Translations under genes and position numbers: made by a program
IMG/VR virus record: IMGVR_UViG_3300044656_000123
Span: 1-64,000 of that record
Length of the DNA stretch: 64,000 bases
Strand: one strand, 5' to 3'
Origin: a virus
Taxonomy: Duplodnaviria > Caudoviricetes
In this document: one piece after another, positions 2,376 to 17,927 of the stretch
Position numbering within the stretch: the first letter of the stretch is position 1
Layout: each line of letters begins with the position of its first letter
Notes under the pieces: generated by a model
Told to the model about the DNA's origin: nothing
Databases searched by the model: none
The model's input: the letters and a program-made list of their open reading frames with translations, nothing else

Positions 2376-5300
2376 TTGAGCACACAGCTAGCACTTGACA
2401 CATACAATAGAGCAAATCAAAGCGGTTGGGGTACTGCCTCTGATGGTACGGACACGTGGACAGCGCGTGACGCTACAGCTACGTACTCAATTGCCAGCAA
2501 TCAAGGAAAGGTGCTACAAAACTCTACCAATGCTGATGAAATTAATACCTTATTTTCTCCTGCAACCAACACCGCATATGAGATATACGGACAATGCACT
2601 ACGTCTAACGCTACTTCTCACCCCGGATTATGCGTTAACTATCAATCTAGCGGTAACTTTGTTAAGTGCGAGATATCCCCGACTGCCGTGAACGTTGTCA
2701 AGTTTGTAGGCGGATCACAGACAACACTTAAATCTGACACCAGCACAAAGGTCACAACGTCTAATGCAACGTACAATTTTCGTTTTAGGTGGGAAGTTGG
2801 CGGCGCTTATTATTTTAAAGCTTGGATTGGTACGGCTGCTGAGCCTGCCGCATGGAACTGCAACGGAGTTACCGATACAACTTACAATAGCGGCGCTGTA
2901 GGTGTATACGTAGCGGCTCGTGGCGCTACAACTGACACTGTTCTCTGGAATCAGTTTTATGTTTCATACTCAGATTTAAATGAGGACACAACTGCTGATG
3001 GTCTGACTCTAAGCGATGCAAGTAGCACGTTTACTATTGCGGAGAATGCACCAACAGATTCGCTTTCAGCGCCAACAGATAGCCAAGCATGGGTAGTCAA
3101 CCCGGCACCAACGGATAGTTTAACATCAGATGACTCGGCTACTACCTTTGCTCTGTCTGATACCTTCCCGGTAGATAATCTGACGCAAGTTGACGCAAGC
3201 GGCGCTACAATCATACAAAATCAAAGCGATGTTTTAGCCGCGCCAACGGATAGCGAAGCGTGGATTGTTGGTTTTAAGCCCACAGAAACCTTAACAGAGG
3301 TTGAGACACAACTTTTTGCCTTGTCTGACACCTTTGCAGCCGATAGCGCTAGTGCTTCGGACGTTATTACGCCAAATTCCGGGCCTTCGCTGTCTGATAC
3401 ACTGACTGAAGCTGAGTCTGCCGCGTACGCCATATCGGAAACGGCACCTATAGACTCGGTAAGCAACGCAGAAAGCCCCGTGTACACGATCACAAAGTCA
3501 AATACTGACTCGGTAAGCAATGCAGAAAGCTCCGCATACGCCCTTGCACAGAATAATGCAGCCATAACACTCGCCGTTACAGAAATTGACGCTAGCGCTG
3601 AGTATTTCAGCGTTGAAGAGGACCTTATAACCTCAGATACACAGCTAGAAGCTATCGTTGAAACACCTGCAAGCGACATTGTAACGCTTACTGAGTCAAA
3701 ATCGTTCGTTATTGCTGATAAATTCCCATCTGATAGCATTGCAAACGCGGAAACCAACCTTACCGCAGTCACACAGACTGACATAACAACTCTCGGCACT
3801 GCCAGCGATAGCATTGTATTTGGTCAACCCGGCGTTATTTTCCCTGATCAATTAACAATAACAGATAGTATTCAGCAGGCAGAGGTCCCGTCCCAACTTA
3901 CCGATGTGCCTTTGCTGCCTTCTGACCTTCTTCAATGGGATACCAACTTTACTGATCACGTCGAGATTGATGAAAGTGTTCAGCTTAGCTACAGTAGTTC
4001 ACTTCTTGATTCAAGGAGCGTGCTATACAGCAACACTATCAGCGACGGGCCAGCCGCTTACTACCAGCTAAACGAAGATTCGTTCGGCGGCATCTATCAG
4101 CGTGACGGTTCTGACCAACCGAACAATGCCAGTATTCCTATCTTGTATGGTTCAATGCTCGAATATACATGGGCGCAGATTGAGCCACAGGAAGGAAACC
4201 GACTTTTTAGCACTATCGACGCTGATATACTCCCTTGGAAGAATCAGGATAAGAAGGTTATTCTGCGTGTATTTGTGTCAAGTACGCCGTTTTACAATAA
4301 CGCGCACAACAATAACACCGCAGGGCAAGCTACGCCTACGTGGGTATTCTCCGCAGGAGCACCGTCAGTCACCGGGCTTGATGGCGCGGTCTACCCGGTA
4401 TATTGGGATAGCACCTTTCTTGCCAAGTACACGAACTTTGTGAACGCCTTTGCAAACTACTACGACGAAAACTCTACCGTCGCTGGCGTCATCATCTCTT
4501 GCGGTGTAAACGGCACAACTGCGTTAGAAGCGTCAGGAGATACACAAAGCAATACTACCGCGCTCTGGACACCGAGAGGCTATACCCCGACGCAATGGAT
4601 GGAAGGCATTGTAAATATCATTGACATTTATCAGGCTGCTTTCCAGCATACGCCATTGATTCTCTCAGTTAATGATGCCGTGATAGCGCCTGATAACGTC
4701 TACAACATTCACCAGTGTATTAGCATAGCGGTTGCTGAAGCTGCATGGTTGATGGATGAGAACGTTTACATCAATGAGCAGCACAATGACCCGAACTGGA
4801 ACATTGTCCCTTTAATTACTGTGCCTAGAGTGAGCATTGCAAGCGGTAACACTCCTGACACGCTAGACGGTGAATTAACGCTTGCCATTAACTATCAAGC
4901 TGACTACGCGGCTGTATGGGCAGATGATATTACACTGGACAATGAGACAACGCTGACCAAATATTTTAGCCTTGCACAAAGCAAGGGGTTGAATGACAGT
5001 GCATCATCAAACTTTAAAATGGCGATATTTGGAGGCGTTTACCCGACATCGCACATTAGCACTGGTGACTACCTGAATGGCGCTCAGCAGTTTGACGGAT
5101 TAACAGGCTTTGGCTACATCGGTAAGCTGGCACAAACAAACACAGATAAATGGACGCTAAAATGCACTGTATTCCCCCAGGTGCTTCCAATGTCAGAGGC
5201 TATAGCTTTTAGCGTCGGTAACGATGGATCTACCGGGTATGGCGGCTATGCCATTGGCATATCAGGAGGCGCAAACGGCGGCGCAGGGGCAAAGTTCTGT

Positions 5301-14721: not shown

Positions 14722-15091
14722 AATACCAGAGCACTTAGATAGAAACCTTGTGCCGATAGAAGTGGGCAGCGTTATTGCTCACGGCGGCGAAGGCGGCATT
14801 AACATAGGTGTCGTTACACGTTTAACTGAGCACAAAATTGAGATCAAGCGCTTTTGCGTTGACATGGAGCATATACCGGGCGAAGATTGGAGCCGGGAAA
14901 ACTACATGGTCACGGGCTACTATTGGGGTAAGACCATGCTCAATAGCGCTGACAGGTGCATGGTCTTACCTATGACCGAACAGGATATAGTAATGCATTT
15001 TTTGATGGCGCATCGCATAGGTGAAGTTTTGCCGCCACATGAGCGCACACGAAACATCACCGAGATACCGAGCGATGGTACTATAGGCTAG
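14714..15091 (+). CDS. Hypothetical protein (SH3/KOW-like N-terminus)
   Basis: LDRN..PIEVGS.I...G.VT pattern; overlaps the tmk stop. Confidence 0.55.
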   Translation: MTEIPEHLDRNLVPIEVGSVIAHGGEGGINIGVVTRLTEHKIEIKRFCVDMEHIPGEDWSRENYMVTGYYWGKTMLNSADRCMVLPMTEQDIVMHFLMAHRIGEVLPPHERTRNITEIPSDGTIG

Positions 15092-15117
15092 CTAAACTCA
15101 TGCAATGAGAGTATAGT

Positions 15118-15147
15118 GACTGTGCAAGGAGCGCTCCTTGCACAGTC
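15118..15147. terminator. Perfect 30-bp palindrome followed by T-run
   Basis: GACTGTGCAAGGAGC|GCTCCTTGCACAGTC then TTTTT. Confidence 0.7.
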
Positions 15148-15171
15148 TTTTTAATTCAGGAGAACATAGCT

Positions 15172-15444
15172 ATGAACGACGCAACTCAAGTACAGGTTGT
15201 TGTTGCATGGATGATGAATCGTCTTGGCAACATGTCTGCCGCAAAACAACAAAGTTTTATCTCTTACATGGTCGGGTTAGCGCTGACAAGCACCCCGCCT
15301 GTTAACGCTCAAACCGTGATCAGTAACGTAGTTAGCGCTTTGCCTGCTAACACTTTCGGAGCTTTTTACGAAATTGCCAGCGATATTGAGCCGCTTTCAA
15401 CACCAGCACCGACAACAACGACTACTACAACGCCAACTGCCTAA
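15172..15444 (+). CDS. Hypothetical protein with Thr-rich tail
   Basis: AGGAG RBS, 90 aa. Confidence 0.6.
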   Translation: MNDATQVQVVVAWMMNRLGNMSAAKQQSFISYMVGLALTSTPPVNAQTVISNVVSALPANTFGAFYEIASDIEPLSTPAPTTTTTTTPTA

Positions 15445-15457
15445 AAGTACCGAGTAG

Positions 15458-15572
15458 TAGACTCAGCAATACGGATCGGCTATACTGTTTGTATTACGAA
15501 ACACACGCGCCTCTTCTCCTTATTGCATTTTAAAGATACCTGCCTAAAACCCCCTTTAGGCAGGTATCTTTT
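15458..15572 (+). ncRNA. Candidate short sRNA with anti-Shine-Dalgarno motif
   Basis: TAGACT-17-TATACT at 15458-15486; TCTCCTTATT at 15515-15524; 17-bp terminator stem 15532-15571. Confidence 0.4.
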
Positions 15573-15719
15573 GTTATAATTATTAACGCTGCCATATAGA
15601 CATAGTTTATCAGTCGCCTTATGTTAATGTGCTTCTTTTATGGCATTTTCCGCTTTCATATGTTATAATTATACTGCAAGTAGGGCGCTATATTGCTGAT
15701 TTAACAAGGGGGTGCAATT

Positions 15720-16064
15720 ATGTGTCAATGTATGTTTTGTGGTCATAATATGCGTTATAGTCGTGCTGTAAATTACGCCGGGAGATTGTTCATTTGTTGC
15801 GAGTGGTGCGAAACACTTCTGCTATACTATGGACTATGCGCGGCCTTAGCGCAATGTATGGATTGCGGCGTAATACTGAGTCAGTCACCGTTCAAGGGGC
15901 GTGTGTTTCTTGACAGGGAAGGTAAGCCAAACCTGAGCGTAGGACACTCACACGGTATCTGTGAACCGTGTGCTAAAGCCAAGTATGATAGATGGATCGA
16001 ACAAAAAGCATTAAGGAAAGCTGAGCAAGAGGCTCTTGCAGCCAGTATCTTGCAGGCAGTATAA
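15720..16064 (+). CDS. Cys-rich zinc-binding protein
   Basis: Multiple CxxC motifs and SHGICEPC. Confidence 0.6.
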   Translation: MCQCMFCGHNMRYSRAVNYAGRLFICCEWCETLLLYYGLCAALAQCMDCGVILSQSPFKGRVFLDREGKPNLSVGHSHGICEPCAKAKYDRWIEQKALRKAEQEALAASILQAV

Positions 16065-16614
16065 TAACAAAACAAGCCTACTCTTTCTCCCGTTATACTG
16101 TCTGCCAGCAGTATAACGGGTCTTTTATTTGGACGCAAATTTTTACGGAGCGCTTCAAGATGAAGTGCAGCGCCTTAACAAAGCAATACACAACGGCCTA
16201 TCTCCTACGATCTACCGCGCCGGGACCACGTATATCATCGAATATGCTGAGATAGAGGCGAATAGAATATGGTTTAGTGTTATCCGCTTAGAGTGGAATT
16301 ACATCAACAAGCATTTTTATATACCTTACGTTGAAGAGAGAGAATTTTATTGCTTGGGTCAATGGGAATGGGCACATATTTTATGTCAATCAGGAATCAA
16401 ACGCAACCCGTACTTTACACTGCGGCAGAGATAGAGTATACTTCCGAGGTCTACAATATAGCCTAGACAAAAACGCTGTAGAAAATAGCGACCTACAGCG
16501 TTTTATTTTTGCAACTGCTGTGCTATAATTCGGTGGGGTAACTTGCTTAGGTCAACAAAAGTGCTCGGACGCTGGTATGCCGGGCGCTTTTGCGTTTATA
16601 GGTTAATAGTACTC

Positions 16615-16643
16615 TTGACAAGCTATGCAATACATGCTAATAT
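16615..16643 (+). promoter_or_regulatory. Sigma70-type promoter of the non-coding RNA unit
   Basis: TTGACA AGCTATGCAATACATGC TAATAT. Confidence 0.7.
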
Positions 16644-16774
16644 TTCTTTACACACAGTTATGTAGCAACTAATAAGGGCTGTTGTCTGACTTGTGATTGT
16701 GCGGAGAACTATCTGCAAGGATGATCCGGGTTTGCCGCCTCAAGGCATAGGCTGACCGTCCGAATACGGTTTTT

Positions 16775-16843
16775 GCGCCTAGTCGCTGAGAACACATTGT
16801 TTGAATAACAATGCAGGAAGGGCCGACACCTTCAGGGCGCACC
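16775..16843 (+). tRNA. Aberrant tRNA-like element (GAA in the anticodon-like loop, reduced D-arm, non-canonical T loop)
   Basis: Acceptor GCGCCT/GGGCGC then ACC; ATTGT-TTGAATA-ACAAT arm; GAAGG-GCCGACA-CCTTC arm. Confidence 0.35.
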
Positions 16844-17333
16844 GGGGCTTAGCCCCTACCCACGTGATGTAAGAGTACGGGTCAGCGTTCAGGAGAGCGT
16901 AAACAACGCTTAACCTACAGTGCTTCAGTTACAATTTCCTTGCCGTGAATGGCTTTATTAGAAGGATCTTACTTGCTGAGCCAGCATCGCTCACCCGAAA
17001 ATTCTAGCGTGAAAATGTGTAAGTAGCCATACCCGGTATTTGTGTTCCGGTGACACGTGATAGTGTTTTATGTGGTGAAAGCACAAAAGCAAGGCACTGC
17101 GATCAGATTGGTTGGGCCAAATTTTGCCGACATAGGCAAGAGAAAAGCCGCTCACTACTTTGGAAACAAAGACAGCAATGACCGAAGCACTGTCCTAGCG
17201 GGGATGGCAGCAGGTAACATTGCTGGTGATGCCAGAAAGCTCGACTTGAAATTCAGTGCCTTACTTTTTACCTGAAGCATTTTATTGTGTCTCTCTCCCA
17301 AAGGTATCAATTCTTCGCTTCAGGTAAAATTTT

Positions 17334-17497
17334 GTCGAGATGGTGTAACGGACATAGCACAACTTAGTAGTCCTCTTCTTCATAGTCACAGTAAATGTTA
17401 ACCTCTTTACGGTGAGTGTCGAAGAGACGAAAGGTAGGTAAGCGGGAGCAAGGTTAACGCGTTAACCAGCTTTAGAGTTCGATTCTTCCGCCTCGGC
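17334..17497 (+). tRNA. tRNA-Leu-like ends interrupted by a long structured insertion
   Basis: 5' GTCGAGATGGTGTAACGGACATAGCAC; 3' GAGTTCGATTCTTCCGCCTCGGC; palindromic variable arm GGTTAACGCGTTAACC. Confidence 0.4.
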
Positions 17498-17500
17498 TTT

Positions 17501-17540
17501 AAAAATCCTAGCATTGCTTGCAAGCAATGCTAGGATTTTT
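17501..17540. terminator. Perfect 40-bp palindrome/terminator
   Basis: AAAAATCCTAGCATTGCTTG|CAAGCAATGCTAGGATTTTT. Confidence 0.75.
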
Positions 17541-17551
17541 TATTGCACATG

Positions 17552-17721
17552 TTGACACTGATGAGCTTATCAGGTATAATAAATGCAGGTATTGTTAGTG
17601 ACAGTCAGGAAAAACACGAAGATACCTTGCTCAGCAAAGAGCGAATAGGCTTCCAATAGGGTACAAAATTTGTGGAGCCAGCCGTTAAGAAAATAAACGC
17701 TGCAATTGCAGCGTTTATTTT
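17552..17721 (+). ncRNA. Candidate ~135-nt sRNA cassette
   Basis: Perfect TTGACA-17-TATAAT at 17552-17580; three short hairpins; 32-bp palindrome terminator 17690-17721. Confidence 0.5.
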
Positions 17722-17927
17722 TGTTCAACTACATAGCATTTATACTTTGTGTCATCCTGCTTAACTGCACCGAGATAGTGTACCGTCTGCTTTGATTCAT
17801 CTACCGTATGAATCTTGATAAACGTGCGGGGCCTTCGGCGCATCAAAAGCAGGTACAAAAATGGCGACATTGCCAGAGAAAGCACTGCCGCCACGATGTA
17901 AGGATACATGTTCACCTCAACTTGCAA
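17715..17927 (-). CDS. Small membrane protein
   Basis: N-terminal hydrophobic helix followed by RRRPR. Confidence 0.5.
   Translation of the reverse strand: MQVEVNMYPYIVAAVLSLAMSPFLYLLLMRRRPRTFIKIHTVDESKQTVHYLGAVKQDDTKYKCYVVEQK

Follow-up and report, generated by a model that had tools for sequence, protein, structure and literature searches.

The 64-kb stretch of DNA analysed here (the window) is the first part of a 96-kb IMG/VR contig of a soil phage. A preliminary description read a region of ~870 nt in it as a densely paired, ornate RNA unit, either new, distantly related to the GOLLD and ROOL RNAs, or processed into several RNAs. GOLLD and ROOL are among the most striking RNAs of unknown function, and few RNA classes of tRNA islands are known. 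The question here is what the locus makes: is this unit one large RNA, a precursor from which smaller RNAs are released, the remnant of a tRNA island, or not an RNA gene at all?

Relatives, boundaries and coding potential

The unit is present as a single copy in the source genome. Its neighbourhood is early-looking and rich in short promoter/terminator cassettes, and its region is flanked by a thymidylate kinase gene and a divergent regulator/RusA block. Searches among 50,697 GenBank phages, by blastn with positions 16500-17700 or by tblastn with a neighbouring 694-aa protein, returned no match, and the thymidylate kinase and the 694-aa protein used as queries found no relatives in IMG/VR. Relatives were reached through homologues of the neighbouring 165-aa regulator in Logan/ENA assemblies, and homologous gene-free units were identified in five related phage lineages, designated L014, L007, L021, L022 and L025. 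The lineage set thus comprises six members including the window, three of which are mutually close. The flanking regulator protein shows only 36-66% identity across the lineages (44% in L021 and L022, and 36% in L025, a 75-kb ENA contig). The homologous gaps measure 1.4-2.1 kb, and BLAST reveals conserved islands in them amid diverged sequence. Contig L005 is 99% identical to the window and has a syntenic gene-free gap, while L009 has the same sequence as L007 over the RNA-unit region. The phage also occurs in the soil data sets SRR23978791, JGI 3300045049 and JGI 3300044684.

Upstream of the thymidylate kinase gene, the near-identical contigs L005 (884-1750) and L006 (3126-3992) carry a 288-aa HNH-endonuclease-like gene. 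It is not called in L004, which equals the window over the compared stretch 15000-17530, and it is a candidate for a mobile homing-endonuclease insertion polymorphism.

Both ends proposed for the unit in the preliminary description were recovered. The promoter at 16615 is of the sigma-70 type (16615..16643, + strand, as are all parts of the unit described below) and consists of TTGACA, a 17-nt spacer and TGcTAATAT, i.e., an extended -10 element. In the alignment, the -35 and extended -10 elements are kept in L014 and L007, and the spacer has diverged. Transcription presumably starts near 16650. The intrinsic terminator at 17501 (17501..17546, stem to 17540) has an 18-bp stem, a 4-nt loop and a T-run; it was not listed by our pattern scan, which takes loops of 3-8 nt and at most 20 pairs. 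In every relative, the unit terminates at the same place in a terminator of its own, the sequence of which is unrelated to that of the window.

Just upstream of the RNA-unit promoter, L014 (5956-5840, - strand) and L007 (10673-10560, - strand) contain an extra tiny unit composed of a promoter (TTGACAGC.ATGCTA.A.T), a GUACCGUG...CACGGUAC hairpin and a U-run. Its counterpart in the window is just a terminator-like hairpin (16555-16595).

Does the bracketed region encode a protein? The ~895 nt between promoter and terminator contain no conserved ORF, in agreement with the earlier statement that no credible ORF is present. The longest ORF (17057-17275; 72 aa) has a GTG start, no RBS and no family match; at the protein level it shows no resemblance to the ORF that occupies its position in L007, its frame is broken in L014, and it was rejected as a gene. 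Gene callers placed no gene in the homologous gaps of L007, L014 and L021. In L022, a 170-aa gene call (2699-3211) lies antisense to the RNA unit, over the first tRNA-like element and the middle of the unit, and is probably spurious. A small-ORF coding region would at least account for the presence of the 72-aa ORF, and the locus could otherwise be read as a cis-regulatory leader of neighbouring genes. Given the state of that ORF, we find the former scarcely credible, and the latter equally so: a strong terminator ends the unit, the unit that follows is provided with a separate consensus promoter, and the closest downstream genes lie on the other strand. The bracketed region is a genuine non-coding unit that is conserved among the relatives.

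The central domain

Compared with shuffled controls, the minimum free energy (MFE) of the whole unit has a z-score of -4.36 on the + strand versus -3.0 on the - strand. This folding signal is local rather than uniform and is concentrated in a central domain of 184 nt (17085..17268), for which z = -4.34 and the MFE and centroid structures coincide. The 5' part (200 nt, z = -1.1) and the middle part (243 nt, z = -1.6) are not significant. The dense pairing originally reported for the entire region thus holds for the central domain, whereas the 5' and middle parts are at the level of shuffles; the ATGGCT/AGCCAT pairing falls in a segment that is not alignable with the relatives.

The central domain consists of a 14-bp closing helix, a multi-helix junction and a hairpin with a GAAA tetraloop. 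Its RNAalifold consensus comprises 51 pairs, and the unpaired runs CAGAUUG, CAAAUU, GAGxAAxGC...CUCA, GAYGCCARAAA and UUGAAA are invariant. A covariance model, R1, was built from three lineages, which it scores at 196-233 bits (196 bits for the window). It finds all six lineages with E-values from 1e-62 to 3e-5, the matches outside the training set being L022 (E = 1e-6), L025 (E = 8e-6) and L021 (E = 3e-5). In the six-sequence alignment A6, pairing extends to 95.5% of the consensus cells; shuffles reach 72% and slid controls 35-47%. Compensatory changes on both sides occur in 35 of the 51 pairs; A6 was fitted to the model, so that the pair counts are inflated and these numbers are generous. 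The three independent R1 matches together with the slid controls make the central-domain fold convincing. The stems AAGGCACTG/CAGTGCCTT, TTGCC/GGCAA, CTTTG-GAAA-CAAAG and CAGCA/TGCTG, all noticed in the preliminary description, belong to the covariation-supported consensus. The GACAG/CTGTC stem proposed alongside them competes with that consensus and was left unsupported.

No Rfam family, including GOLLD and ROOL, matched the central domain in the window, L007, L014, L021 or L025. This domain is the solid part of the unit and, judging from comparative sequence data, represents a putative new RNA family that is characterized by the closing helix, the junction motifs and a location in a tRNA or tRNA-like unit, all of which were found in the window. 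The invariant unpaired runs and the GAAA tetraloop suggest that the domain adopts a tertiary fold or contains a binding site. Its combination of a multi-helix junction with invariant unpaired nucleotides makes binding to some partner, be it a protein, a ligand or another RNA, most likely.

How widespread is this family? Scans with GCAAGAGNAAAGCCGCTCAYT gave no match in viral contigs and four matches in JGI metagenomes, all of them coding and unrelated. Scans with GAYGCCARAAARCNNNNNTTGAAA gave 6 matches in IMG/VR and 116 in bacterial genomes (185,579 species genomes covered), many of the latter in Paenibacillus. Of the 116 bacterial matches, 80 loci were listed; none of the loci checked fits R1, and we regard these motif matches as due to chance. 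No host or prophage copy of the RNA unit was found in the IMG/VR and bacterial-genome motif scans. The central-domain family is either rare or limited to a group of soil phages that has been little sampled. A 24-nt degenerate motif has matches in at least 11 Paenibacillus/Cohnella genomes, none fitting the RNA model; there it is probably part of a genus-conserved coding sequence.

The tRNA-like elements and their flanking hairpins

The two distorted tRNA-like folds mentioned in the preliminary description proved to be real and are conserved across the relatives. The first is preceded by a poorly conserved 5' leader (16650..16754; z = -1.1) and by a hairpin, ACCGU-CCGAAU-ACGGU with a U-run (16755..16774), which ends directly 5' of it. 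Across the window, L014, L007 and L021 this hairpin hardly varies, and in each case the 5' end of a tRNA or tRNA-like element follows it directly. tRNA-like #1 itself (16775 to 16841 or 16843) is a minihelix with a 6-bp acceptor stem and a 5-bp T stem, which are the only canonical tRNA features found in it: it has no D stem, its T loop (GCCGACA) is non-canonical, and its 'anticodon' hairpin is long (7-9-bp stem, 5-10-nt loop) and lacks U33. The acceptor strands are GCGCCUA/AGGGCGC in the window, GCGUCCG/AGGACGC in L014 and GCAUCCU/AGGAUGC in L021, and the T stem is GAAGG/CCUUC in the window and CAUGG/CCAUG in L021. These differences indicate that pairing in tRNA-like #1 is kept by compensatory changes. 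Directly after the discriminator (A in the window), the window and L021 have CC, and L014 has CCA. In L007, the slot is occupied by a true tRNA-Met(CAU) scoring 47 bits.

In the loop of tRNA-like #1, L005 (~5021) has 7 nt (ACCCACG) more than the window (16798), and this insertion creates the palindrome CACGUG; L004, from another sample, has the shorter form, as in the window. CACGUG also occurs at 16861 and 17054 of the window, and the MFE fold pairs these two copies with each other.

Between tRNA-like #1 and the central domain lie the variable middle (16844..17032; ~190 nt, z = -1.6), which in L014 and L007 is ~430 nt long and largely different in sequence, and a small conserved hairpin, CCGG-UAUUUGUGUU-CCGG (17033..17050), with an invariant loop and one compensatory pair (C-G versus U-A). 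On the 3' side, the central domain is followed by an 11-bp hairpin, UUACCUGAAGC/GCUUCAGGUAA (17269..17327), the loop of which carries UCUCUCCCAA. In L014 this hairpin has a covarying stem and the conserved loop motif; it is absent from L007. The pyrimidine run UCUCUCCCAA, found in the hairpin loop in the window (17279-17316) and in L014 (~4895-4835, - strand), is complementary to GGGAGA-type Shine-Dalgarno-like sequences.

tRNA-like #2 (17334..17498) is considerably closer to a tRNA in its body. Acceptor/T-arm stacking, the T loop, U8, A14 and G18G19 are all present; the D arm is GUGU/GCAC with a GG loop, and the T arm carries UUCGAUU. The acceptor stem has 6 bp plus an invariant A7.C66 mismatch, and one extra nucleotide precedes its 3' strand. 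A long variable-arm hairpin differs in sequence in each lineage, and a rod-like arm of ~75 nt (70-90 nt across lineages) replaces the anticodon loop. Neither tRNA-like #1 nor tRNA-like #2 has a 7-nt anticodon loop with U33 and an anticodon. By nhmmer and alignment, tRNA-like #2 was detected in five lineages and was undetected in L025; because MAFFT misaligns its insert, its helices were parsed by hand and an nhmmer profile was used for the element. Pairing in the core stems reaches 92%, as against 37-57% in slid controls. Just three core pairs are compensatory, and shuffles are often as good; covariation is weak here since the core stems are mostly invariant. CCA is encoded after tRNA-like #2 in L021 and L022. 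More generally, a U stands at -1 before most tRNA-like elements, and in several lineages the discriminator has CC or CCA after it.

Neither element is called by ARAGORN or by the Rfam tRNA model (E <= 10), although these programs do call the tRNAs of L007, L021 and L025. Relaxed ARAGORN thresholds produced 183 genome-wide calls, none at the tRNA-like elements, and were discarded as noise. The possibility that tRNA-like #2 is a tRNA containing a group I intron was also rejected: the candidate insert is 70-90 nt long, there is no Intron_gpI match, and the flanks yield no anticodon.

The end of the long arm deserves separate consideration. Its terminal loop of 10 nt (17396..17405) is UGUUAACCUC in the window as well as in L021 and L022, and L014 and L007 share UACUAGUCAC; the version of the window contains the palindrome GUUAAC (17397-17402). 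Loop positions 2-7 form a perfect palindrome in both versions, which differ by two double changes (G-C to A-U and U-A to C-G) that keep self-complementarity, and the closing stems covary. The chance of palindrome retention is ~1 in 10-16. The loop resembles a kissing-loop homodimer, a likeness that is suggestive only. An anti-Shine-Dalgarno reading of the loop (...AACCUCU...) was dropped, as L014 and L007 have ...AGUCACU... instead.

Module order, known RNAs and competing readings

Homology and structure are conserved among the lineages, and the modules are rearranged between them. The central domain lies 5' of tRNA-like #2 in the window, and in L007 it ends 2-3 nt before the 5' end of that element, whereas in L021 and L022 it lies 3' of tRNA-like #2. 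In L021, it also comes after a true tRNA-Asn that directly follows tRNA-like #2, and the preceding unit contains two tRNA-Leu genes. In L025, the central-domain homologue stands right after tRNA-Ser and tRNA-Tyr in an island of at least 8 tRNAs. The number of tRNAs in the syntenic region is 1 in L007, 3 in L021 and at least 8 in L025; related phages have a tRNA island here, which is also the setting of GOLLD and ROOL. The 96-kb contig itself (CheckV completeness 83%) contains no canonical tRNA or tmRNA according to ARAGORN with introns allowed. Since the window phage keeps the tRNA-like elements and has lost every true tRNA, a role in translation supply is unlikely.

The permuted module order and the true tRNAs between modules favour a processed multi-RNA operon rather than one GOLLD-like RNA: permutation would be incompatible with a fixed three-dimensional architecture, and independently folding RNAs with tRNA-shaped separators fit better. 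We consider it moderately probable, on the basis of the comparative sequence data, that the unit is a tRNA-operon-like precursor in which tRNA look-alikes serve as processing signals and an RNA of ~185 nt is the cargo. Such an early-type unit, extending from the 16615 promoter to the 17540 terminator, would have descended from a phage tRNA operon and would still work like one, yielding a precursor of ~895 nt that encodes no protein. The two non-decoding look-alikes would keep the acceptor/T-arm shape recognised by host processing enzymes (RNase P, 3' trimming enzymes and the CCA-adding enzyme) and would act as punctuation; recognition by RNase P is predicted from shape alone. Cuts at the ends of the look-alikes would release a stable RNA of ~185 nt (17085-17268), the putative conserved functional cargo, together with tRNA-like RNAs. 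tRNA-like #2 is probably functional itself, as a tRNA-shaped body with a long rod, and the self-complementary loop of the rod could pair two copies head to head. We infer that the unit is transcribed and processed at the tRNA-like elements, with dimerisation and a cellular role for its products. Of the possibilities raised in the preliminary description, the processed operon thus agrees better with the comparative data than a single RNA, the processing step itself being a prediction.

The closest parallel to this logic is the tRNA operon of phage T4, in which tRNAs are co-transcribed with two small stable RNAs of unknown function (species 1 and 2) that are released by host tRNA-processing enzymes; the difference is that the tRNAs of the present unit are non-decoding look-alikes. 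In MALAT1 mascRNA and in mitochondrial tRNA punctuation, a tRNA-shaped element directs cleavage by RNase P/RNase Z and sets the ends of neighbouring RNAs. Those systems are eukaryotic or organellar, and cleavage in the phage unit is predicted. tRNA-like #2 resembles tmRNA and YrlA in joining a tRNA-like acceptor/T/D module to a large extension that replaces the anticodon arm. However, no tmRNA was detected by ARAGORN (window and genome) or Rfam (E <= 10), and there is no tag reading frame; YrlA had no Rfam match in the window region and differs in that the strand ends of the phage element lie at the acceptor stem.

The main competitor of the operon reading is one unprocessed ornate RNA of ~0.9 kb akin to GOLLD and ROOL, self-assembling into an oligomer, with the tRNA-like elements as integral domains or linker cargo. 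The context is indeed the same (a phage, a tRNA island and an upstream Met-tRNA slot): one studied GOLLD lies downstream of a Met-tRNA, and in GOLLD tRNAs sometimes sit in an internal linker, yet the whole is treated as one RNA (PMC12286853), so that embedded tRNAs are no proof of processing. Like GOLLD (RF01998), the unit is a non-coding phage/prophage element in or by tRNA arrays (its relatives carry tRNA-Met, -Asn, -Leu and -Ser/Tyr), has a conserved and a variable part and is of similar overall length, ~0.9 kb; like ROOL (RF03087), it is phage-associated and, as is often the case for that RNA, near tRNAs. The z-score of the whole unit (-4.4) and the self-complementary loop kept by double changes would also suit such an assembly, as chains in the ROOL nanocage are joined by same-sequence palindromic pairings. 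Nevertheless, cmscan with the GOLLD and ROOL models gave no match in the window at the gathering score or in 16300-17900 at E <= 10, nor in L007, L014, L021 or L025, and with the whole of Rfam there was nothing on the unit at the gathering score (window) and nothing relevant at E <= 10 (16300-17900); the suggested distant membership in these classes was not detectable. Size and architecture differ from those of ROOL. In contrast to GOLLD, the conserved core is only ~185 nt, and the modules change order between lineages, as in L021 and L022. GOLLD is a homo-oligomeric nanocage, while the sole hint of oligomerisation here is one palindromic loop. The middle, of 190-430 nt, is unconserved and folds like shuffles, as does the 5' part, and L025 has the central domain without a detectable tRNA-like #2. 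The picture of ~870 nt as one ornate fold was not supported: only ~185 nt and the two tRNA-like elements are conserved, and what is left is exchanged or altered in length from lineage to lineage. A single GOLLD/ROOL-like RNA seems to us unlikely, though still a serious candidate.

Could tRNA-like #2 instead be the main product, a CCA-ended, anticodon-less tRNA mimic to which the rest of the unit is accessory? It might be charged by an anticodon-independent synthetase, or act as a decoy or sponge that captures tRNA-binding proteins or the nucleases with which host defences target tRNAs. Its canonical D/T elbow, class-II-like variable arm and acceptor stem, the CCA encoded in L021 and L022, its conservation across five lineages and its retention by the window phage despite the loss of every true tRNA speak for this. 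We nevertheless hold it to be improbable: all copies have the A7.C66 mismatch and the extra nucleotide, the element is absent from L025, which retains the central domain, and this reading gives no reason why the central domain is more strongly conserved. In addition, the discriminator is U or A, and to our knowledge no class-II identity set fits it. A decaying tRNA island, i.e., pseudo-tRNAs and spacer, transcribed or not, with no present function, would account for a genome without a canonical tRNA whose relatives have from 1 to at least 8 in the region, for a tRNA-like #1 lacking the D arm and the T-loop consensus, and for the 7-nt indel between the window and the 99%-identical L005. Decay is very improbable, however, because compensatory substitutions keep the helices of the central domain and of both tRNA-like elements, and do so across lineages in which the regulator is only 36-66% identical; the promoter and the terminator are retained as well.

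With this locus, the phage tRNA-island niche gains an RNA family that is compact and strongly covarying, and the conserved non-decoding look-alikes may show how such RNAs leave tRNA operons. What tRNA-island RNAs do for the phage is now testable on a small construct. A bolder proposal, which we put forward only tentatively and think rather unlikely, is that the unit contains two new RNA classes: a tRNA-island junction RNA and a dimerising, CCA-ended, anticodon-less tRNA mimic. The former would be a ~185-nt junction RNA in which unpaired nucleotides are conserved to a ribozyme or riboswitch grade. In the latter, the anticodon arm would be a rod of ~20-25 bp with a self-complementary kissing loop, forming tail-to-tail dimers, and phages would thereby possess an RNA-only assembly or a tRNA decoy of a novel kind.

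One additional observation concerns the next cassette downstream (17552-17721), which consists of a perfect TTGACA-17-TATAAT promoter, an RNA of ~135 nt and a terminator. Conservation in L014 and L007 (73-77% identity) extends to its promoter, and the cassette is recognisable also in L021 and L022 (GUAGUGUUCAGGAAAACGCAC...). Its conservation along with the promoter indicates that it is likely a real sRNA gene.
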